DNA from: Candidatus Latescibacterota bacterium
Lineage (GTDB): Bacteria; Latescibacterota; UBA2968
Assembly (NCBI GenBank): GCA_038279365.1
Contig: JAYODI010000042.1
Coordinates: 34,903 to 46,704 of the forward strand
DNA: 11,802 nucleotides
Direction of reading: 5' to 3'
Notes under the pieces: generated by a model
The model's database searches: none
What the model saw: only the letters and a program-made list of their open reading frames with translations
Told to the model about the DNA's origin: nothing
In this document: positions 1-11,802 of the stretch, piece after piece
Layout: each line of letters begins with the position of its first letter
Numbering within the stretch: position 1 is the first letter of the stretch
Translations under genes and position numbers: made by a program

Positions 1-1992
<1,992 letters not shown>

Positions 1993-1996
<4 letters not shown>

Positions 1997-3315
1997 TCCT
2001 ATATTTCTTAATCCAGCGGTGGGTAAAAAAACAAATAAAACTCCGGGTGATACTCGGAGTTTTATTTATTAGTGGCCTGCCAATACAAGCCCAGCAACAA
2101 ATGACAGCAGAATGGGTAGAAACCCGCCTTGGAGAACTGGGCAGTTCTCGAAAGTATATCGGACGGGTAGCCTATCAAGATTCTTTAGGATCTATACAAA
2201 TTGAAGCAGATTCCGCGATTGTAACGGGTTCTGAATATGTATTTGTATCCAATCTCAAATTTCAAGATTCGGTTCGGGTCATTCGGGCAAAGGAATTGCG
2301 TTTTAATGAAAAAGAACACGTTGCTCAATTTTTAGGTGATGTTTTTTTTCAGGATAAAAAAGGATCTTTGTCTGCATCAGAGATCGTTGTATGGCCCGAT
2401 TCTCAAAAAATAGAGGCCAAAGGTGGAAGTGTTTTTGATCTCACGTTAAGGTCCCAGCGCGTAAAAGCAGATCGACTTACTTATGATGGTCAACGCGATC
2501 ATGGTGTGGGTTTGGGAAATGTTGTGGCAACGGTTGTTGGTGACCAAGGAGATTCACTATGTATTCAAACTGATTCTTTGCATTTTGCATCTCAAGAAGA
2601 AAACTTTTCTTTTTGGGGCATATCCAAAATCCAACAATTGGGAATGGGTTTGTTTGCAACCCGAGGACGCTATCAAGGGGGAATATTGCAGGCCAGTGGT
2701 TCACCTGAAATTTATTGGTCGCGCTCATCACAAGCAGACTCGGTTTGGGCCAAAGCCGATTCTATTGATATGCGATTTAACGATCAAGAATTGCGTTCCT
2801 TCGCTTTGTTTTCGGGAACGGTTATAAAATTGAGTGCGTTACAACAGGGTTCTGTTCAAACCGTAAGAGGTGATTCTGCCAGAATAACACTCCAAAACAA
2901 AGATATTTTGTCTATGTGGGTGTTTGATAACACGAATCTTCACTTTGAAAAAGAAGATCAAACAATAACGTTGCGTGGCGATTCTGTGGCAGTTTGGTTT
3001 ACGGAAGGGAATTTGGACAGCCTTGAGGTTTATGGACCTGGAGATGGCAAGTATCAGGGCAAAGACGATGGCGTCAGTCAGGTATCTGGAGATAAAAAAA
3101 CATTGTGGTTTAAAAACAATGAGCTTGTAAAGATGATTATCGTAGGCAATGCATTTTGTCATTATGTTGCCAGAGGCGAAGAAGATGTGAACCGAGTAAA
3201 CTTTAGCGGCGACACTTTGGTTTTGGATTTTGCAAAAGGTGAATTGTCTCAAATAGATGTGGTTGGTCAAGTTAAAGGGGTCTATTTACAAAACAAAACG
3301 GAAAAGATGCCGTGA
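1993..3315 (+). CDS. lptA: Extended LptA/OstA-like periplasmic beta-jellyroll protein (440 aa)
   Basis: Signal-peptide-like N-terminus (…KLRVILGVLFISGLPIQA), about ten repeats of an x-x-[AG]-D-[ST]-x-x-x strand motif followed by G-N/D-V-type turns, position between lptC and lptB, GTGA overlaps with both neighbours. Confidence 0.75.
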
Positions 3316-4034
3316 CTTTAGATGCTAAAAATTTAGAAAAATTTTATGGAAAGCGCCGAGTTGTTAATGGCATCACATTGTGTGTGGAGGCTGGTGAGGT
3401 TGTGGGGTTGTTGGGCCCTAACGGTGCAGGAAAAACAACATCTTTTTTTATGATTGTTGGGGCAATTGCCCCAGATCGCGGTCAGGTGATGTTGGCAGAG
3501 AGAGATGTTACGCATTTGCCCATGTATAAACGCGCCCGAATGGGCATTGGTTATTTGTCTCAAGAACCTACTGTATTTCGAAAATTAAGCGTATGGGACA
3601 ATGTGATGGCGGTTTTGGAGCATATTGAAAAAGATCGCACAAAAAGGGTTCAGAAAGTTGAAAGGGCTTTGGATGATCTGGGGCTTGGTCATGTGCAAAA
3701 ACAACGAGCCGAAAGTCTTTCTGGTGGGGAAACGCGTCGATTGGAAATTGCTCGTGCATTGGTCCAAAATCCAAAATTTATGTTATTGGATGAACCATTT
3801 GCAGGTATTGATCCCAAAGCAGTCGAAGATATACAGGGTATTATCATGCAATTAAAGGCACGTGGCATCGGGGTTTTGATTACAGATCATAATGTGAGGG
3901 AGACACTAAGCATTACAGATCGATCTTATATTTTGTCAGATGGGCAGATATTGGTTGCCGGTACACCTCAAGAATTGGCGGAAAATGCAGAAGCCCGCCG
4001 AATTTACTTAGGGGACCGTTTCCGATTGGACTAA
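3312..4034 (+). CDS. lptB: LPS export ABC transporter ATP-binding protein LptB
   Basis: Walker A GPNGAGKT, Q-loop YLSQEPTVFRKL, signature LSGGE, Walker B LLDEPFAGIDP, H-loop ITDHNVRETL, C-terminal YLGDRFRL; 240 aa. Confidence 0.97.
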   Translation: MTLDAKNLEKFYGKRRVVNGITLCVEAGEVVGLLGPNGAGKTTSFFMIVGAIAPDRGQVMLAERDVTHLPMYKRARMGIGYLSQEPTVFRKLSVWDNVMAVLEHIEKDRTKRVQKVERALDDLGLGHVQKQRAESLSGGETRRLEIARALVQNPKFMLLDEPFAGIDPKAVEDIQGIIMQLKARGIGVLITDHNVRETLSITDRSYILSDGQILVAGTPQELAENAEARRIYLGDRFRLD

Positions 4035-4053
4035 CCAGCAGGTAAAAAAGGTA

Positions 4054-4080
4054 TTTACATTGGGTGCGGTTTGTTATTAT
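4054..4080 (+). promoter_or_regulatory. Possible sigma-70-type internal promoter for rpoN
   Basis: TTTACA (4054-4059) and extended -10-like TGnTATTAT (4072-4080) in the 104-bp lptB-rpoN gap; the 15-bp spacer is non-optimal, so the call is tentative. Confidence 0.3.
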
Positions 4081-4138
4081 CTTTATCTGTGCATCGTTGG
4101 AACAGTTTTTGATGTATCCCTTCTCACTGAGTGGTCTT

Positions 4139-5644
4139 ATGATTCGTCTTCAACACACACAAACGACTTCCCTACAACAAAAGTTGGCGCCCCAACTGAT
4201 TCAGTCATTGCGTCTGTTACAGATGCCAACGCTGGAGTTGGAACAACTGATCCAACAAGAATTAGAAATGAATCCATTGTTGGAAATAGACGAAGATCAA
4301 AACCAAGACTTAGAAGAGGCAGAAGCACCAGAACCTGAATCTGAAGTAAATATTGAAGCAGAAGCCGATGTGAAGGAGCAGGAAGAGGCTGAACCTGATG
4401 TTGAAGATAATGAGCGTTTGGATGAATTGGAATTTGAAAATGCCGATATGGACAACAAAGACCAATTTGACGAAGATGATTGGGATCTTTATCTCAATGA
4501 GTCTGGGTATAGCAGTCCAAGAGAAGAATTTGACCCCAATGTTGAAGATTGGACCCATGATGGGGCCAGTTTGAGATCTTTGGAAGATCTGTTGCATGAA
4601 CAACTTTTGCTTACCGGTTTGAGTCATAATGACAAAGAAATTGCCGATTATTTGATAGGTAATATTGATGAAGATGGGTTTTTATGTACCCAAACCTTTG
4701 AAGTTGCAGATATCTTGGGTGTTGATGAAGCCGATGTTGAACGCGTTTTGGCTGTGATCCAGACCTTAGAACCACCCGGTGTGGGGGCGCGTAATTTACA
4801 AGAGTGTTTGCTTATTCAATTAAAAGAGCAAGGTTTTACCAGTGGTATGGTTGTCGAAATTGTGCGTGATCATTTAGATGACTGGATCAATCGTCGCCAT
4901 AGCAAAATTATGCGTGCGTTGGGTGTGGATCTTGACGACTTACGTGAGGCAGAACTTGTTATTGCAGCGCTCAATCCCAAGCCAAATGTCGAATTAGAGC
5001 CCACCGTAAACCTAAATCATGTCATACCAGATTTGGAAGTTCAAGCTGTTGGTGATGAATTTGTGGTTTCCTTAACGGATCGAAACGTTCCTGCTTTACG
5101 TGTTAGCCCTATTTATAGATCTGTTTTGAGTCAGTCCGAGCGGGAAGGGCGCGATGCAAAAAAGTTTGTGGTTGATCGCCTCAATTCGGCAAGGTGGTTT
5201 ATTAGTGCCATTCATCAGCGGCGCGCAACCATGTTGAAGGTCATGCGGTGCATTGTTGAAAACCAAAGGGTCTTTTTTGAAAAAGGCGCGGGTAATTTGC
5301 GCCCAATGGTTTTGCAAGAGGTAGCAGATAAGGTTGGCATGCATGTGTCAACGATTAGCCGTGTGAGCAATGGAAAGTATGTTCAAACGCCACATGGGGT
5401 GTTTGAGCTGAAATATTTTTTTGACGGTGGGCTTAGTCGTGATGATGGCGATGATATTTCAGCACGCAGTGTCAAAGAAAAAATAGCCAAACTCATTCAG
5501 GAAGAAGATACAAAAAGCCCTTTAAGTGATCAGCGCATTGCCGATATTTTGAAGGATGATGGAATTGATATTGCACGTCGAACAGTTGCAAAGTATAGAG
5601 ATCAGCTAAAGATTAATCCTGCCAGGCATCGAAAAGTGATTTAA
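4139..5644 (+). CDS. rpoN: RNA polymerase sigma-54 factor
   Basis: Region I Gln/Leu-rich MIRLQHTQTTSLQQKLAPQLIQSLRLLQMPTLEL…NPLLE begins at ATG 4139 (preferred over GTG 4064). Acidic region II, EPPGVGARNLQECL, HTH MHVSTISRV, PLSDQ and RpoN box ARRTVAKYR. Confidence 0.98.
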   Translation: MIRLQHTQTTSLQQKLAPQLIQSLRLLQMPTLELEQLIQQELEMNPLLEIDEDQNQDLEEAEAPEPESEVNIEAEADVKEQEEAEPDVEDNERLDELEFENADMDNKDQFDEDDWDLYLNESGYSSPREEFDPNVEDWTHDGASLRSLEDLLHEQLLLTGLSHNDKEIADYLIGNIDEDGFLCTQTFEVADILGVDEADVERVLAVIQTLEPPGVGARNLQECLLIQLKEQGFTSGMVVEIVRDHLDDWINRRHSKIMRALGVDLDDLREAELVIAALNPKPNVELEPTVNLNHVIPDLEVQAVGDEFVVSLTDRNVPALRVSPIYRSVLSQSEREGRDAKKFVVDRLNSARWFISAIHQRRATMLKVMRCIVENQRVFFEKGAGNLRPMVLQEVADKVGMHVSTISRVSNGKYVQTPHGVFELKYFFDGGLSRDDGDDISARSVKEKIAKLIQEEDTKSPLSDQRIADILKDDGIDIARRTVAKYRDQLKINPARHRKVI

Positions 5645-5996: not shown

Positions 5997-6874
5997 CTTT
6001 GATGATCAAGTGGTATTTTTTGACAGCAGCTGGGTTCGTCCTGGCTGTTTTTTTGATGGGGTGTGGCCAGCCTTCTTATAGGCTAAATGGAGTGACGCAA
6101 CTTCAACAGGTTGCACTATTGGACAGCACAACCCAAGTTTCAATAGATTCTGTGCGTGTAGAATTTAAGCACCTAATGGATTTTTTGAAAAAAAGTGAAA
6201 TTGCTGCGATAGATTCTGTTTCAAAGAGTGCGTCTGAGTTGGGGCCAACAATACAAAAAGCGCAGCAAGCACTGCGTTTGGCAAATGAAAAATATGCAAG
6301 GGCATTTGAACAAATGCATCGCTTTCGATCATTTGGGGGAAATCCCGTCTTTTCAAGTGAAGATGTGGGTGTGAGCACGCAAAAACTGCTAAATGAAATT
6401 CCAGGACGATTTTACAAAGGGCGGGCATTTTCACTCGAAACAGAGGGGCAAATTCGGCGTTTTGTTAAAGCGGAATTGGTGCCAATAGAAGCCGAAGTCA
6501 ATCAGGCAGAGGCGCGGGTGAGACGGCTAAGAAGTGCCAAAACGGGGCGATCAAAAGCCAAGGAAGAGATGGCAAAGCAATTTACGGAAAAGAGAAGGCG
6601 TGTTACGGAGGCCGCAACCGAAGATATTAGAAAAGTTATTCAACAACATCGGTTGCGGGTTGCCAATGTAGATACCTCTGGGCAGTATGTTTTTATCAAT
6701 GTTGGTCAAGGTAAGTATTATTTGGCTGGCGGAGATCTTGATTCTACAGATTATGTGGTTCAGGTGATGGTCTCATCTCACGTTCACCAAAATATTTCAG
6801 CTAATGTTGGCAGTCCTATAGGGATATTAGATGGGGCAGATACGACAAACTCAGATGAAGGTAATGGCATTTAA
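5993..6874 (+). CDS. Hypothetical lipoprotein with long helical region and C-terminal beta-sandwich (carboxypeptidase-regulatory/Cna-B-like) motif
   Basis: Lipoprotein signal KWYFLTAAGFVLAVFLMG-C (Cys codon 6062-6064); A/E/K/R/Q-rich helical middle; C-terminal VDTSGQYVFINVGQGKYYL motif. Start is GTG 5993 or ATG 6002. Confidence 0.78.
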   Translation: MTLMIKWYFLTAAGFVLAVFLMGCGQPSYRLNGVTQLQQVALLDSTTQVSIDSVRVEFKHLMDFLKKSEIAAIDSVSKSASELGPTIQKAQQALRLANEKYARAFEQMHRFRSFGGNPVFSSEDVGVSTQKLLNEIPGRFYKGRAFSLETEGQIRRFVKAELVPIEAEVNQAEARVRRLRSAKTGRSKAKEEMAKQFTEKRRRVTEAATEDIRKVIQQHRLRVANVDTSGQYVFINVGQGKYYLAGGDLDSTDYVVQVMVSSHVHQNISANVGSPIGILDGADTTNSDEGNGI

Positions 6875-7650
6875 TGGTCTGTTTGGTGTGTACTGATTTC
6901 ATCTTCTGAGATTTTATGAACGCTTTTGGGGTTAAATGTTTGTCGTGTGTTCATTCGCAAGGCCACTTCGATTCGCCCGCCTGTAAGTACAAAAAACTGC
7001 ATCAAAATACCCCCGCCTTGCATCGTTTCTACCTGATAGGTATTTTTATTTAATCCCGATAATGCATTTGATAGCATGTCATCACCCCTTGGGTCTTTTA
7101 GTACGGATTCGGGCAAGGCCATGATGAGGGTTCCTGGGGTATTATTGATCGCTTTGCCAATTTTTTCGCGTATGTCAATCATGTAATGGATGGCTTTTTG
7201 GGTCTGCTCAAATTCATGATTTGCTGTATCTTTGGGTGGGGTGATGCCCCAAGTTAAGTGGTGGATAAATGGGTTTCCATATCCTTGACTGAGCATTTCG
7301 TTTCGTGCATCACTGTCTACAGGATGAACGACAGCAACATACCGGAACCACCCTTTTTGGAGGGCTGGGTGATTTGCTGGCAACCCAGAAGGGACATTAA
7401 TGTAGTCTTGCCCATCAACGGGCGATGGGTAACATTTGGTGTCCCAACCTGCAATATATCCCATTTTTTTTAACGGACCAGAGACCAAGTGAGGTGGGTC
7501 TGTAAAAATGGCCGCGTGATCCATTTGGGGGTAAAGCGATACACCCGCCGCAAGGATCTTCTGTGCCACATCTTTTGCTTCATTAAGTCTTTGTGTGGCA
7601 TTGTCAATTTTGAGTACATCTGAAAAATTTTCGGGCAATAAAACTTCCAT
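6871..7650 (-). CDS. Hypothetical protein, probable VOC-superfamily metalloenzyme (HPPD C-domain/DUF1338-like), 259 aa
   Basis: Strong SD AAGGAGA just upstream of ATG at 7650 (preferred over the 7755 start). Motifs MDHAAI, GNPFIHHLTW, GILMQFF and RIEVALR…TF match the order of metal-ligand motifs in HPPD-like VOC enzymes. Confidence 0.7.
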   Translation of the reverse strand: MEVLLPENFSDVLKIDNATQRLNEAKDVAQKILAAGVSLYPQMDHAAIFTDPPHLVSGPLKKMGYIAGWDTKCYPSPVDGQDYINVPSGLPANHPALQKGWFRYVAVVHPVDSDARNEMLSQGYGNPFIHHLTWGITPPKDTANHEFEQTQKAIHYMIDIREKIGKAINNTPGTLIMALPESVLKDPRGDDMLSNALSGLNKNTYQVETMQGGGILMQFFVLTGGRIEVALRMNTRQTFNPKSVHKISEDEISTHQTDH

Positions 7651-7862
7651 ACGATCTCCTTGTTGATGGGCATATGTCCACACAAGAAATGCCTTTCGAA
7701 TCCCAACGTCAAGCCAAAAAAAACACAGATTATTTTGAAGTTGGCAAAAATGCAATTCGTGGGTTAATTACAAGTTCATAATTCTAAGAAATTTAAAACC
7801 AATGACTTTGGTCTCGTCAATGGATATCAGAAAAAAAGATTACGTTTTTCTGGTAAACAAGA

Positions 7863-7888: not shown

Positions 7889-8521
7889 TTGGCTACTGCA
7901 AAACGCGTTTTGGTTATTGATGACGAAGAGACGGTCGCAAAGCCCATTGAGCATATTCTTAGGTTGTACAATTACGATGTACGCATGACAACCCAATGGA
8001 CAGATGCTCTGGACTTACTCCAAGATGAAACATTTGATTTGATTACCCTTGATCTTGAGATGCCCACAATTGATGGGCCGACAATGTTGCGTTTTATTCG
8101 TGAAAATGGTCTTGAAACACCCGTTATCATTATTTCAGCCAGTATTACAGAACGCACCCCTCAAGATCTTGCGGAATTTAATGTATCGGCTTTTGTTTAT
8201 AAGCCATTTAAAGTATCTCATATCAAAGAAATTATTGAACAAACCATAGGCGAAAGCGTTCCCAATGAAGAGGAACACGCTGTTGACTTAGATGAATTTC
8301 TTCAAAGTTCACCTCAGGTATTGGCACCAAGAAAAAAAGAGGGTATTGAAGAAGAAAAACCACGTCTACATCGTGTAAAAAAGAAGCGCAAAAAGAAATT
8401 GTTTTCTTCTAAAGAGCAAAAAACACAGACGCTTATTGCTTTTGCGATCATTGCAATTATCAGTTTGTTTCTCAGTGGATTTATGTCGGCATTTCGACAA
8501 CAAGTGAGCAGTATGTTTTAA
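7889..8521 (+). CDS. Response regulator receiver-domain protein with C-terminal transmembrane helix
   Basis: REC residues intact: D11/D12, phosphoacceptor D55 (LITLDLEMP), S83, K105-P106. Then a charged linker, polybasic RVKKKRKKK and hydrophobic LIAFAIIAIISLFLSGFMSAF. TTG start is forced by an in-frame TGA at 7877-7879. Confidence 0.9.
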   Translation: MATAKRVLVIDDEETVAKPIEHILRLYNYDVRMTTQWTDALDLLQDETFDLITLDLEMPTIDGPTMLRFIRENGLETPVIIISASITERTPQDLAEFNVSAFVYKPFKVSHIKEIIEQTIGESVPNEEEHAVDLDEFLQSSPQVLAPRKKEGIEEEKPRLHRVKKKRKKKLFSSKEQKTQTLIAFAIIAIISLFLSGFMSAFRQQVSSMF

Positions 8522-8536
8522 TTGAAATACCTTTTC

Positions 8537-8574
8537 AAAAAAACCTCCGGTCTTATAGATCGGAGGTTTTTTTT
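8537..8574 (+). terminator. Rho-independent terminator, potentially bidirectional
   Basis: A7-CCTCCGGTCT-TAT-AGATCGGAGG-T8: 10-bp stem with one G-U pair, U-tracts on both strands, 15 nt after the response regulator stop. Confidence 0.92.
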
Positions 8575-8698: not shown

Positions 8699-8714
8699 TG
8701 GCACCTGTCTTGCA
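8699..8714 (+). promoter_or_regulatory. Sigma-54 (-24/-12) promoter
   Basis: TGGCAC-CTGTC-TTGCA is an exact match to TGGCAC-N5-TTGCW, with GG at 8700-8701 and GC at 8712-8713. Intergenic, correctly oriented, 25 nt before ATG 8740. Confidence 0.88.
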
Positions 8715-8739
8715 TTAACAAAGTGAAAAAGGACAGGCA

Positions 8740-10914
8740 ATGATTCGATGGTTTTCTTTTGGGGCATGTATTGGATTGATCTGCGTGGTCATTTTCAGTA
8801 CAGAAGGGTTTTCAGATACACTCGATTTTGGTCGTGTGAGAATAGGCTCTCAGCAATTGGATACACTCCTTTTTAAAAATGAGAATTTGGTAAACATGAT
8901 GATTTCCAAAACCACTGTATCGGACACCGTCTTCTCTTTGCCATCACAGCCTTTTTCGGGTGCTCTGAGTCAATTGGCCCCAGGTGAAGAGAGGTGGGTG
9001 CCAGTGATTTTTTTTCCGCAGGGTGTCAACCAGGATTCGGGGCAAGTGGTTTTAGAAACAAATATTGGGACGTTTTATTTGCCATTGATGGGGGAAGGGG
9101 TTGAAGAAGTGGTGGTTATCAACGAAATACTTGCTGATCCAGCTTCTAATTTATCAGGTGATGCCAATGGTGATGGCATTCGAAACAGCAATGAAGATGA
9201 ATTTGTTGAGTTGTTAAATACAGGAAAGTATCCAATAAACATTGGGGGATGGCAAATTTTTGATGCGGGCGCTTCTCAAAGCAATCGATTGACATTTCCT
9301 CCTGAAACTTGGATAGGCCCATCAGAACGTGCGGTGGTGTTTGGTGGTGGAGAACCAAAGGGTATTTTGGGAAAAGTTTTTGTTGATGATGGCCGAATAG
9401 GTGGTGGGTTTCGCAATTCTGGTGATGAGATCATTCTTTTTGATCCCACCCTTGATGACACCCTTGCATTTGTGACTTATGGTGCTGAGGGGAATAAAAA
9501 TACCTCATTGGTGAGGTGGCCTGAAGGTATTGGAGATTGGTACTTGCACACTGAGTTTCCAGGTCAGAACGATTTGTTTTCACCCGGAACGGCAAGAACC
9601 GTTGTGACCAAGATTAAAGTGATGAGCCAAGACACATCCATTGCATTTGGAGATTCATTGCATTTGCCTGTTATGAAGTTTTTGTCAAACGGGTCTTCTG
9701 AGCCTATCAAAAACGAAGATTTGAATTGGCATACATCCATTGAAAATGTAATGATCCAAGAAAATAGCGGTGTTTGGGTGAGCAAGCAACAAGGGGTTAT
9801 CCAAATATATTCCGACTTTCAAGGCTTTCTATCAGACACCCTTTTAATCAGGGTTCTGCCACCAAAGATGGTGAGATTGGATGTTTCTATAGAGGACTCA
9901 CTGCTCTTGATAGGAAAAACATATGGGCTTCGGGTAGAAGGTGTTATTTCTGAATCTGAGAAAACGGTTTTGCAAGATGGATATCAGATTGCATTAAGCG
10001 ATTCTGGCATCGCACGTGTTGTGAATGGGGAGATTCAAGCGCTTTCTTTTGGTTCTTGTGAGGTAACTGTGTGGCAGGGGGATTTGCTTGGGCGTGTAAA
10101 TGTTCAGGTTGTTGCTTATGGGGATCTCAATGCAGATGGTGAACACACCATCTGGGATGCAGTTCGGGTTGTGCATTTAATTTTAGGGATTGAACCCCAA
10201 GCCACAGATTTTGAGAAGCAATCTGCAGATTTTAATCAAGATGGTGTTTTGGATATACGAGATCTTATTGGGGTGATTCAACGGATGTTTCAGGGGGAGA
10301 TTGTTTCCAATAAATTGGCAGAAAATAGATCAAATATCGGGGTGAGGAAACGGATTGGGGGTGTTTCTTTGGATATACCTTCGCAAACGATCGCTATTAC
10401 CTTTAAAACAATGTCCAACCAAAACAAAAGCATTAAAGCATCAAGTGGGCACATCTTTTGGGTGCAGGATGATATGGGGGGGAAGGGGATCATTTTGCCT
10501 GGTGAAGAAATGGGGGTGGTTTGGCAATCTCAAACAGTTGAAGTATTTGGGGCATCGGCATTGGAGGCATTTGAATGGATGGCATGGAAATTAGATGGCA
10601 GTAGTTATTTGTTATTATCTCAAGATGAGAGCGGCGGTGGTGTAAAGATTTTGGGGTCACATCCAAATCCATTAAATCCCTCTACTACAATAGATTACCG
10701 CATATCAGTGCCACAGGCAATCACTATTAATGTTTATAATATTACGGGACAATGGATATGTGAACTATATGATGGTTATATGCCAAATGGTTTGCACAAA
10801 ACCACTTGGAATGGTTACGATGCTGAGGGGAGAGTTGTGGCCAGTGGATTATATTTTGTGCAATTAAAAGGAGCTTTAAATGTTTCTACGCTGAAGATGG
10901 TCGTGCTGCGATGA
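8740..10914 (+). CDS. Secreted multidomain protein: ASH/choice-of-anchor-D-like Ig, lamin-tail domain, Ig-like repeats, dockerin, FlgD-Ig/T9SS type A-like C-terminal domain
   Basis: Signal peptide. LDFGRVRIG…LAPGE…F.P…GEG Ig domain (~8818-9100). VVINEILADP…DEFVELLN…GGWQI.D…SPG lamin-tail domain (~9109-9590). Duplicated Ca-loops GDLNADGEHTIWD and ADFNQDGVLDIRD (~10120-10290). HPNPLNPSTTI…VYNITGQ…WNG.D..G..VASGLYF…KMVVLR (10660-10911). Confidence 0.88.
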   Translation: MIRWFSFGACIGLICVVIFSTEGFSDTLDFGRVRIGSQQLDTLLFKNENLVNMMISKTTVSDTVFSLPSQPFSGALSQLAPGEERWVPVIFFPQGVNQDSGQVVLETNIGTFYLPLMGEGVEEVVVINEILADPASNLSGDANGDGIRNSNEDEFVELLNTGKYPINIGGWQIFDAGASQSNRLTFPPETWIGPSERAVVFGGGEPKGILGKVFVDDGRIGGGFRNSGDEIILFDPTLDDTLAFVTYGAEGNKNTSLVRWPEGIGDWYLHTEFPGQNDLFSPGTARTVVTKIKVMSQDTSIAFGDSLHLPVMKFLSNGSSEPIKNEDLNWHTSIENVMIQENSGVWVSKQQGVIQIYSDFQGFLSDTLLIRVLPPKMVRLDVSIEDSLLLIGKTYGLRVEGVISESEKTVLQDGYQIALSDSGIARVVNGEIQALSFGSCEVTVWQGDLLGRVNVQVVAYGDLNADGEHTIWDAVRVVHLILGIEPQATDFEKQSADFNQDGVLDIRDLIGVIQRMFQGEIVSNKLAENRSNIGVRKRIGGVSLDIPSQTIAITFKTMSNQNKSIKASSGHIFWVQDDMGGKGIILPGEEMGVVWQSQTVEVFGASALEAFEWMAWKLDGSSYLLLSQDESGGGVKILGSHPNPLNPSTTIDYRISVPQAITINVYNITGQWICELYDGYMPNGLHKTTWNGYDAEGRVVASGLYFVQLKGALNVSTLKMVVLR

Positions 10915-11802
10915 GGAGAATAGTATTCTGTTTGATTCTGTGTTGCTTTTTTGAAAGGGTATCTTGGGCTGAATCCTCAAGTGTAAAAATAGATATTGGG
11001 CAAGCGTTGGGGATGCCATCCGATACCATAGAGGTTCCGGTCAAAATCCAATCATCTCAATCTTTATCCGGAGTTGCATTTGTGGTGTCTTACAATAGCT
11101 CAGACGTGGAATATTTGGGATCGGAGCAGGTCGTGTTTCCTTTTAATGTTTTTGAAAGCAATATCCAAGGATCTTTGAGTTATGTTTTTTTAAACCCAAA
11201 TACAACTGCTGTTTTGATGCCTGGAAATCATGTGTTGGTGGTAATGAAATTCAAAATTAACCAAATGGATCAAGAACGAAAAATTAAACTAAATGGCACA
11301 GACTTTTCATTTACAGATGGTCAATTTTCACCAAATGAACGTGTTGGAAAAATCAATTCTGGGGAAATTGTTGTAACGCAGCAAGTTGTGCGTCTTCATC
11401 AAGCAATGTGGATGTCTCAAAATGTTTTGCGTATGGATGTCGAATTAAAAAACCTAGAAGAAGTTTCCGCTATTCAAATGGTGCTTCGTTGGCCAGATTC
11501 TCGACTGGCCTTTCAAAACATTCAGCCCGTTCAAAGAGCCCGCAGTTGGCAGGTTTTTGTTCATCCCCAACAAAAGAGTTTGGGGTTAATATTGGCTGAT
11601 ATGAGTGGCAATAACGCCATTGCTCTTGGGCAAGGTAAAATTTTAGAATTGTTCTTGGCCCCAACAGACGGCACTGAACTGTCTGGGAAAATGGTGATTG
11701 ATAGTTTGATTGTTACGGACAGATCGGGAGAAAAGGTAGCAATCGCATACGAGCCGACCATTTTGAGTAATAATGGACGTGAAGATTTTGCCGCGAATGA
11801 AG
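10911..11802 (+). CDS. Secreted protein with two tandem cohesin-like domains (scaffoldin-like), 3'-truncated by window edge; missing from ORF track
   Basis: ATG overlaps the upstream stop (ATGA); 297 codons without a stop to the window end. Signal peptide MRRIVFCLILCCFFERVSWA. Domain 1 VKIDIGQALGMPSDTIEVPVKI…LSGVAFVVSYNSSDVEY…LVVMKFKI…GEIVV (~10980-11375). Domain 2 MDVELKNLEEVSAIQMVLRW…LILADMSG…GQGKILEL…LIVTDRSG (~11385-11760). Confidence 0.85.
   Translation, partial: MRRIVFCLILCCFFERVSWAESSSVKIDIGQALGMPSDTIEVPVKIQSSQSLSGVAFVVSYNSSDVEYLGSEQVVFPFNVFESNIQGSLSYVFLNPNTTAVLMPGNHVLVVMKFKINQMDQERKIKLNGTDFSFTDGQFSPNERVGKINSGEIVVTQQVVRLHQAMWMSQNVLRMDVELKNLEEVSAIQMVLRWPDSRLAFQNIQPVQRARSWQVFVHPQQKSLGLILADMSGNNAIALGQGKILELFLAPTDGTELSGKMVIDSLIVTDRSGEKVAIAYEPTILSNNGREDFAANE

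Follow-up and report, generated by a model that had tools for sequence, protein, structure and literature searches.

The stretch of DNA analysed here, referred to as the window, comprises 11,802 nucleotides of a Candidatus Latescibacterota metagenome-assembled genome (MAG; 6.03 Mb in 199 contigs, estimated contamination 7.4%), in which it occupies positions 34903-46704 of contig C1 and ends where the contig ends. Its 3' part holds an operon of two genes, the first (gene 1) encoding a secreted protein with a dockerin and the second (gene 2) encoding a protein that begins with two cohesins, and a -24/-12 element of the sigma-54 type stands ahead of both (Table 1). Cohesin-dockerin pairs are mainly known as the enzyme loaders of Gram-positive cellulosomes. 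Since the window also contains lptC, an lptA-like gene, lptB and rpoN (at 4064-5644 by family scan), the host is a diderm that encodes a sigma-54 factor of its own. Estuary and marsh sediments contain this DNA.

Table 1. Features of the window (positions are those of the 11,802-nt stretch; residues are those of the encoded protein)
Feature	Position	Strand	Residues or size	Basis or remark
Partial pyrG, lptC, lptA-like gene, lptB, rpoN	1..5644			~3 kb upstream of the operon
Flanking gene	6871..7755	-	294 aa	Marks the syntenic locus in relatives
Response regulator	7889..8521	+		Pfam Response_reg, residues 7-116, 84.3 bits; then a ~90-aa tail
Hairpin and U-run	8537..8573	+		Minimum free energy -22.7 kcal/mol, z -7.7, 0/200 shuffles equally stable
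Sigma-54 -24/-12 element, TGGCAC-N5-TTGCA	8699..8714	+		11/11 consensus match
Gene 1	8740..10914	+	724 aa	Signal peptide, Ig, LTD, two Big-like, dockerin, beta-sandwich, T9SS CTD
N-terminal Ig (ASH/PapD-like)	8815..9102	+	26-121	Fold match
Lamin tail domain (LTD)	9112..9480	+	125-247	Pfam PF00932, 51.5 bits (cut-off 34.3)
Two Big-like Ig domains	9604..10113	+	289-458	AlphaFold2 strands
Type I dockerin	10117..10284	+	460-515	Pfam PF00404 Dockerin_1, 32.9 bits (cut-off 22.9)
Beta-sandwich	10339..10614	+	534-625	AlphaFold2 strands, low to moderate confidence
T9SS type A sorting domain	10663..10905	+	642-722	TIGR04183, 32.0 bits (cut-off 23)
ATGA overlap, gene 2 start on gene 1 stop	10911..10914	+		
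Gene 2, 5' part, open at the contig end	10911..11802	+	297 aa	Begins with a signal peptide
Cohesin 1 (type I-like)	10983..11372	+	25-154	Pfam PF00963, 41.2 bits (cut-off 24.1)
Cohesin 2 (type II-like fold)	11376..11780	+	156-290	PDB profile and fold

The AlphaFold2 (AF2) model of the gene 1 protein (11 orthologues; pLDDT 74.8) began with a signal helix, and its N-terminal immunoglobulin-like (Ig) domain matched the SPD-2 domain of CEP192 (7ptb; Z 12.5, root-mean-square deviation (rmsd) 2.1 over 95 residues); the Pfam HYDIN_VesB/ASH and NCBIfam choice-of-anchor D families were also found there, each under its cut-off. The lamin tail domain (LTD) superposed on the tail of lamin B1 (3jt0_A; Z 11.0, rmsd 2.5 over 96 residues), and the Big-like pair matched the Ig-like domains of LigA (8gyr_A; Z 12.9, with an rmsd of 8.2 over 171 residues when both domains are taken together). 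The dockerin has duplicated Ca-binding loops, DLNADGEHTIWD and DFNQDGVLDIRD, each of the form D-x-N-x-D-G-x-x-x-x-x-D, and D-x-N-x-D-G is the pattern by which dockerin loops are defined. Three helices were modelled in this domain (471-482, 490-496 and 506-516), and its closest sequences in the PDB were type I dockerins (CelS 1daq, E 0.003; CaDoc 6kg9, E 0.009). The C-terminal domain (CTD), which is of the kind that sorts type IX secretion system (T9SS) cargo, matched a PorU chain (6za2_A; Z 11.0, rmsd 2.4 over 90 residues, model range 506-724) and the C-terminal part of PorZ (5m11; Z 8.7, rmsd 2.7 over 84 residues); matches to FlgD_ig and Por_Secre_tail were below their cut-offs. Pfam and NCBIfam scans of gene 1 returned no catalytic family, and no family at the beta-sandwich of residues 534-625. 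A degenerate cohesin was considered for this sandwich and rejected, as a comparison of the gene 1 orthologue profile (A1) with the profile of gene 2 N-termini (A2; both described below) aligned the LTD start only, and both Pfam and our own hidden Markov models (HMMs) were empty there.

Both N-terminal domains of the gene 2 protein are modelled as nine-stranded jelly-roll cohesin folds, and not as generic Ig folds or carbohydrate-binding modules (CBMs). The AF2 model of the part that lies in the window (pLDDT 87.4, pTM 0.77) had the cohesin dyad 3l8q as its top Foldseek match (E 5.5e-14). In this model, cohesin 1 (residues 20-157) superposed on the type I cohesin CaCohA2 (6kgd_A; Z 19.5, rmsd 1.8 over 134 residues) and cohesin 2 (residues 156-289) on the type II cohesin 4wi0_A (Z 13.1, rmsd 2.8 over 130 residues). 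The A2 profile was made from the N-termini of all 11 downstream genes found at the loci described below, which have the same two-domain layout. Searched against the PDB, it gave an E of 4.8e-11 for cohesin 1 (A2 positions 18-155), and for cohesin 2 (A2 positions 156-292) it retrieved 2xdh (4e-4), 5aoz (9e-4) and 5m2o (1.5e-3), every match being a cohesin; a Pfam scan of the window protein gave no match for cohesin 2.

Gene 2 probably continues on contig C21, the reverse complement of which begins with the final 55 nt of C1. This overlap is exact, unique genome-wide and in frame, and the frame runs on for 1340 codons on C21. The join fits the orthologues in which the entire gene stands on a single contig, and it fits Logan contigs of four DNA runs, which extend 23-204 nt beyond the window end. 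The joined protein would have about 1619 residues (18 overlapping residues counted once) and would consist of the two cohesins, a linker, four LTDs and a T9SS CTD. On the C21 part, the LTDs scored 173 bits with Pfam in four stretches (100-252, 360-513, 629-783 and 1090-1188 by our own HMMs), and the TIGR04183 tail scored 25.9 bits in the genome search. Neither part of gene 2 had an enzyme or CBM family in the Pfam and NCBIfam scans. The gene 2 product is not a multi-cohesin scaffoldin: after its two cohesins come four LTDs and a T9SS tail of its own. A linker of six PSHPE repeats (locus L003 on C21, ~6590-6680, minus strand) stands after the cohesin dyad, about 40 codons beyond the contig break, and this repeat may have contributed to the break in the assembly. 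A terminator-like hairpin was found ~300 nt past the gene 2 stop, beyond an 89-aa open reading frame (ORF) on the same strand.

An earlier account of this DNA, made from the letters without database searches and called here the sequence-only reading, had described a consensus -24/-12 promoter, a secreted protein with a duplicated dockerin motif and no recognisable catalytic domain, an ATGA translational coupling, two cohesin-like domains in the second protein, and a host judged to be a diderm by its Lpt genes. All of these are borne out by the full promoter match, by the Dockerin_1 score together with the reading of both loops, by the overlap at the stop codon, by Pfam and fold (cohesin 1) or PDB profile and fold (cohesin 2), and by the lpt genes of the window. 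The FlgD-Ig/T9SS type A-like tail that it assigned to gene 1 was right as to T9SS, TIGR04183 being over its cut-off, and not as to FlgD_ig. Generic Ig or CBM folds downstream, which it had named as grounds for giving up the idea, were not what the models returned. It had also called for the sequence downstream, which C21 would supply.

The pair is conserved in relatives. Full-length gene 1 orthologues of 10 relatives were aligned with the window protein (A1; 30-44% identity), and across these 11 sequences the dockerin loop residues G461, D462, D466, D473 and D508 and the LTD core were invariant. An alignment search of contigs yielded 64 related loci, which were scanned with our own HMMs; many of them share genomes with the A1 set, and they belong mostly to Candidatus Latescibacterota MAGs, with a few filed under Gemmatimonadota. 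An LTD-dockerin-CTD gene was present at 12 loci, and at 11 of the 12 a gene for cohesin 1, cohesin 2 and a variable number of LTDs followed directly 3'; at the twelfth, a run of N breaks the downstream gene just past the signal peptide. We refer to this two-gene arrangement as the split form. Pfam Cohesin was detected in the downstream gene at 8 of the 10 split loci scanned, with two Cohesin stretches each in L098 and L099. The spacing between the genes at the 11 loci was an ATGA overlap in four, 1 nt in two, ~10 nt in one, 40 nt in one and 110 nt in two, the start being unclear in the remaining one; the ATGA overlap of the window recurs in L096, L102 and L103, and the 1-nt gap (TAAGATG) is that of L097 and L104. 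In L102 and L103 (genomes G006 and G022), the gene 1 orthologues are 572 aa long and have no Big-like domains, with Ig, LTD, dockerin and CTD kept, and their partner genes encode 4 to 6 LTDs.

At 22 further loci we found a single protein made of four or five LTDs and a CTD, and none of the 22 has a dockerin or a cohesin. This fused form occurs in other species, including congeners of species that bear the pair. The upstream flanks of split and fused loci are 86-88% identical in genus g7 and 81-85% identical in genus g5, the downstream flanks are 81-83% identical in g7, and the product of the window ORF at 6871-7755 (minus strand) is 62-67% identical to the upstream flank gene of split and fused loci. 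Because the flanking genes are orthologous, the split and fused forms occupy the same locus. The correspondence extends into the proteins themselves. Residues 32-418 of the fused protein of G030 (1566 aa) are 62.5% identical to residues 1-387 of gene 1 of its congener G039, and residues 321-1566 are 67.5% identical over 1260 residues to residues 380-1623 of gene 2 of G039. The same fused protein is colinear with the window proteins, with 39% identity to gene 1 residues 26-382 and 27% to residues 626-1340 of the C21 part. The block that is absent from the fused form comprises, on the gene 1 side, the second Big domain, the dockerin, the beta-sandwich, the CTD and the stop, and on the gene 2 side, the start, the signal peptide, cohesin 1 and cohesin 2 (together with a He_PIG domain in g7). 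In five fused-type genomes no relocated orthologue of the cohesin dyad was found, the best profile match being 28.9 bits; fused-type genomes keep other cohesins elsewhere.

We considered whether the split form could be a frameshifted or misassembled fused gene, given that the MAG contig stops inside gene 2 and that one relative (L097/L111) has gene 2 in pieces. This is scarcely credible. The split form adds several hundred residues of foldable domains (dockerin, CTD, signal peptide and two cohesins), and it was found at 12 loci of different assemblies, closed chromosomes included. A tree of the flank gene, rooted at its midpoint, was made with 29 rows (8 split and 21 fused); L110, L111, L116, L120, L124 and L144 were omitted, having no flank match within the 8.2 kb searched. 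On this tree the two forms require at least two changes, with split rows branching early in both main clades, and the approximately unbiased (AU) test rejected the monophyly of either form (p 5.9e-55 and 2.3e-54).

The -24/-12 element stands 25 nt ahead of the gene 1 ATG (8740), with AGGA at 8730-8733 between the two. It resembles sigma-54 (RpoN) promoters in its GG-N10-GC core, in the full TGGCAC-N5-TTGCA, in its suitable distance from the start codon and in the presence of rpoN and of activators (27 sigma-54 activator matches) in the genome; here the element is known from its letters and its conservation, on which the predicted dependence on sigma-54 in vivo is based. The strict 11/11 motif has 16 copies genome-wide (6.03 Mb), where base composition would predict 2.6, and at 12 of the 16 an ORF of at least 100 aa begins no more than 150 nt away. 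Within 400 nt upstream, a motif of at least 9/11 was present at 11 of 12 split and 21 of 22 fused loci, that is, at 32 of the 34 related loci overall, as compared to 9 of 265 control windows of equal size taken from the same loci. Since relatives that have no dockerin or cohesin carry the motif too, the promoter is a trait of the LTD-array locus and not of the dockerin-cohesin pair. The sigma-54 control named by the sequence-only reading was thus upheld as a motif conserved in relatives, but not as something specific to the pair. None of the other 36 cohesin or dockerin ORFs of the genome has a motif of at least 9 within 250 nt. On contig C39 (~33000-36780, minus strand), a strict sigma-54 motif precedes a 1226-aa signal-peptide protein with a terminal T9SS tail, so this operon would not be the only case of T9SS cargo under sigma-54 control. 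An IHF/HU-like gene lies on the opposite strand downstream of gene 2 (L003 on C21, 668-1045); IHF is a frequent helper at sigma-54 promoters, and the location may be coincidence.

Overall, these results favour the view that the sigma-54-dependent operon encodes the two halves of a non-enzymatic surface LTD array, which are rejoined by dockerin and cohesin, and we regard this as the probable explanation. Each half would cross both membranes alone, since a Sec signal peptide and a T9SS CTD are present on each. Outside the cell, the gene 1 dockerin would plug, in the presence of Ca2+, into one of the N-terminal cohesins encoded by gene 2 (cohesin 1, which is type I-like, being the likeliest), and this docking would restore the order Ig-LTD-Big...LTD-CTD that relatives build as one chain. 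The assembled array would be kept on the outer membrane by the T9SS tail of gene 2. Its role is probably adhesion or ligand capture, which is the weakest step of the explanation. The argument is of the 'Rosetta stone' type: because the fused relatives are without exactly this block, the two products may be taken to act as one unit, with dockerin and cohesin at the break. The missing block is also what a split T9SS cargo needs, namely a new export tail for the N-terminal half, a new signal peptide for the C-terminal half, and a plug and a socket. The predicted binding gains plausibility from the conservation of the Ca loops and from the close fit between cohesin 1 and solved dockerin-binding cohesins. 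The proposal of the sequence-only reading that the two proteins are cognate partners in a non-cellulosomal surface complex is accordingly strengthened, both by a tightly coupled pair that is conserved in relatives and by the fused relatives that lack exactly the dockerin/cohesin block; a lack of co-conservation, which it had held to be damaging, was not seen, as 11 of 12 dockerin loci have the cohesin gene downstream.

The same domains could in principle be structural modules only, the dockerin-like and cohesin-like parts being non-binding Ca and Ig spacers in proteins that work independently. Linkage alone would explain the co-occurrence, and each protein has its own export and anchoring signals. 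We nevertheless consider this very unlikely. At 30-44% overall identity, both Ca loops and the three helices of the dockerin have been preserved. The rmsd of cohesin 1 to solved cohesins that bind dockerins is 1.6-1.8, and each part of the block missing from the fused forms is one that two separately exported halves would need in order to reassemble in sequence.

The operon stands in a genome that is rich in such modules. Dockerin_1 gave 30 matches at E <= 0.01, 21 of them above the cut-off, and Cohesin gave 14 matches, 13 of them above the cut-off, together amounting to 37 ORFs; the census of dockerins that the sequence-only reading had called for is contained in these figures. ORFs with dockerin matches carry chondroitinase B, sulfatase, subtilase S8, Vgb-lyase/NHL propellers, FG-GAP repeats and an MtrC-like multihaem cytochrome. 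A Pfam scan covered 35 of the 37 ORFs, all except the two of the window. Several cohesin proteins of the genome have a terminal T9SS tail, and 12 of the 22 TIGR04183 tails in the genome are on cohesin or dockerin ORFs (one of them by a sub-threshold dockerin match). As for the T9SS machinery, SprA scored 702.6 bits against a cut-off of 200. In a sample of 81 Latescibacterota genomes, Cohesin was present in 71 (47 of the 50 of high quality), with up to 34 matches per genome.

This repertoire raises the question of whether the operon is a cellulosome-like enzyme scaffold, in which the gene 2 cohesins mainly recruit dockerin enzymes to an LTD-decorated, T9SS-anchored scaffoldin, and gene 1 is one client among others or binds anchoring cohesins elsewhere. 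ORFs with a dockerin match also encode chondroitinase B (contig C38), sulfatase (C165), subtilase S8 (C127) and Vgb-lyase/NHL propellers (C6 and C24); among these, C127 and C6 are the only ones for which Dockerin_1 came up again in the Pfam scan at E <= 1e-4. The small proteins with a cohesin and a CTD on C80, C104 and C127 resemble anchors, cohesin 1 and cohesin 2 are of different type, and a comparable model has been put forward for Cloacimonadota, as set out in the part of the paper devoted to it (PMC8542988). We judge this explanation unlikely. The operon products have no enzyme domain, other cohesins persist in fused-type genomes, and the fused relatives lose the cohesins along with the gene 1 dockerin but keep the LTD array, which a private link between the two proteins fits better. 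A cellulosome in the strict sense is not what the operon encodes, its products being without a catalytic or CBM family. The enzyme scaffold is compatible with the rejoined LTD array that we prefer, for example if cohesin 2 were to take enzymes.

Four other loci or groups of loci in the genome show how these modules are arranged elsewhere. On contig C57 (606-6184; L067 and L068), a sigma-54 activator gene and a gene for a cohesin-cohesin-dockerin protein are followed by an MtrC/MtrF-like multihaem cytochrome, in which a dockerin, a cohesin and a T9SS tail are also present. The arrangement suggests that a protein of extracellular electron transfer is mounted there through cohesin and dockerin. 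On contig C127 (11-4318; L075 and L076), one strand holds a sigma-54 activator gene, a cohesin-CTD protein and a subtilase S8 with a C-terminal dockerin, which has the look of an anchor paired with an enzyme. Neither at the C57 nor at the C127 locus was a convincing -24/-12 motif found, despite the adjoining activator genes. Contig C196 (45280-47397; L082 and L083) has a second small operon, made of a dockerin gene and then a tandem-cohesin gene, both of 347 aa and 30 nt apart, with no LTDs or clear T9SS tail. Tails of the order dockerin, cohesin-like domain and T9SS CTD end large proteins on C34, C96, C53, C57 and C1 (1-873).

Several points weigh against the rejoined LTD array. The dockerin and the cohesins are adjacent on the DNA, and a single insertion or deletion would gain or lose both; since they are physically linked in this way, the fact that they strictly co-occur does not count as separate evidence of binding. 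Each product has a T9SS tail, which makes separate anchoring possible, and about 20 other dockerins and 12 other cohesin matches in the genome make cross-pairing possible. Cohesin 2 is marginal by sequence, and the join of C1 to C21 depends on an overlap of 55 nt, in a MAG whose contamination is estimated at 7.4%. As to export and control, the PorU-like gene (258 bits against 420) and the PorV-like gene (151 bits against 250) are both below the NCBIfam cut-offs, and neither C1 nor C21 carries any of the 27 sigma-54 activator matches of the genome. Finally, bacterial LTDs are without an established role, as far as the discussion of one study goes (PMC6085458).

The product of the flanking gene at 6871..7755 had no match in Pfam and NCBIfam scans. 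The response regulator at 7889..8521 is inserted between this conserved flank gene and the operon, and other genera do not have it; the same-genus locus L105 has a 206-aa ORF at this position. Its NCBIfam matches were to the receiver domain only, with no AAA+ domain, and it is not a sigma-54 activator. The hairpin at 8537..8573 was found by folding and was not listed by a consensus terminator scan; it is a terminator that insulates the operon from the response-regulator gene upstream.

The clostridial type I pairs (CaCohA2-CaDoc0917, PDB 6kgc-6kgf; CelS 1daq) are like the pair described here in the fold of cohesin 1, in the two canonical Ca loops and in having plug and socket on separate secreted proteins. 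They differ in that here there is no enzyme or CBM, the host is a diderm, T9SS sorting domains would take the place of S-layer homology domains or sortase, the operon is predicted to be sigma-54-controlled, and the pair is proposed to join the halves of an LTD array instead of loading enzymes. Non-cellulosomal cohesin-dockerin systems in diderms are already known as in-silico proposals, going by the sections that present them (PMC8542988, PMC6461901). In the account given of the cellulosome-like model for Candidatus Stygibacter of the Cloacimonadota (Williams et al. 2021, PMC8542988), a diderm of the FCB group likewise has secreted dockerin proteins and a cohesin protein with a T9SS-type CTD; the dockerins there are on GH18, GH57, S8 and C25 enzymes and the 3755-aa scaffoldin has tandem cohesins and CBMs, whereas here both partners are non-catalytic LTD proteins encoded in one operon, with a fused form in relatives. 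The 'Planctosome' modelled in silico for freshwater Planctomycetes (Andrei et al. 2019, PMC6461901) has, in the portion that describes it, an LTD and a cohesin combined in a large secreted protein, whose partners are dockerin proteins and which has no connection with cellulose. That portion gives it one LTD, interpreted as a tether to the membrane, along with P-domains and peptidase clients but without T9SS (PMC6461901); the operon described here has five LTDs over its two proteins as well as T9SS tails, and it encodes no enzyme client. The features that the sequence-only reading called unusual, namely the diderm host, the absence of a glycoside hydrolase and the T9SS tail, are thus all present, but these two models offer in-silico precedents, in the sections cited (PMC8542988, PMC6461901).

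With respect to LTDs in bacteria, a study of ExeM found the domain dispensable for extracellular DNA degradation, and its discussion notes tandem LTD repeats in secreted bacterial proteins and states that the role of the LTD 'has not yet been elucidated' (PMC6085458). A table legend on cellulosomal proteins of C. thermocellum includes the LTD among their modules (PMC6083626). Dockerins are attributed to Latescibacteria in the discussion of one paper (PMC7424252), which cites Farag et al. 2017. Youssef et al. 2015 was considered as a source for a Latescibacteria cellulosome and was set aside, since the words cellulosome, dockerin, cohesin and scaffoldin are absent from its main text (PMC4454575). 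Among the main texts of a limited library, nothing was found that combined Latescibacter* with T9SS or Latescibacterota with dockerin, and in the same library, supplements aside, we did not find described a sigma-54 operon of two non-enzymatic LTD proteins or a split/fused polymorphism of this kind.

In this operon, a cohesin-dockerin pair appears to stand in for a peptide bond within a diderm's surface array that has no enzymatic parts. Relatives that make the protein in one piece from the same locus serve as a natural control, and a comparison of this kind, seldom available for an uncultured phylum, speaks for one particular plug-and-socket pairing. For protein engineering, the locus suggests a pair that is probably orthogonal; it also frames the question of the ligand of tandem bacterial lamin-tail domains, and, with Cohesin in 71 of 81 genomes, it points to the assembly of T9SS cargo by cohesin and dockerin as a phylum-wide habit. 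A broader idea, which we put forward tentatively and to which we would not quite commit ourselves, is that cohesin and dockerin are a natural protein-splitting device, that the LTD array exists in two interchangeable states between which lineages switched at least twice, and that the private pair reassembles the chains. If this is true, the T9SS surface proteome of the phylum, in which 12 of the 22 T9SS-tailed proteins of the present genome have cohesin or dockerin matches, would be largely a snap-together kit, and the locus would be evolutionary proof of which plug fits which socket.

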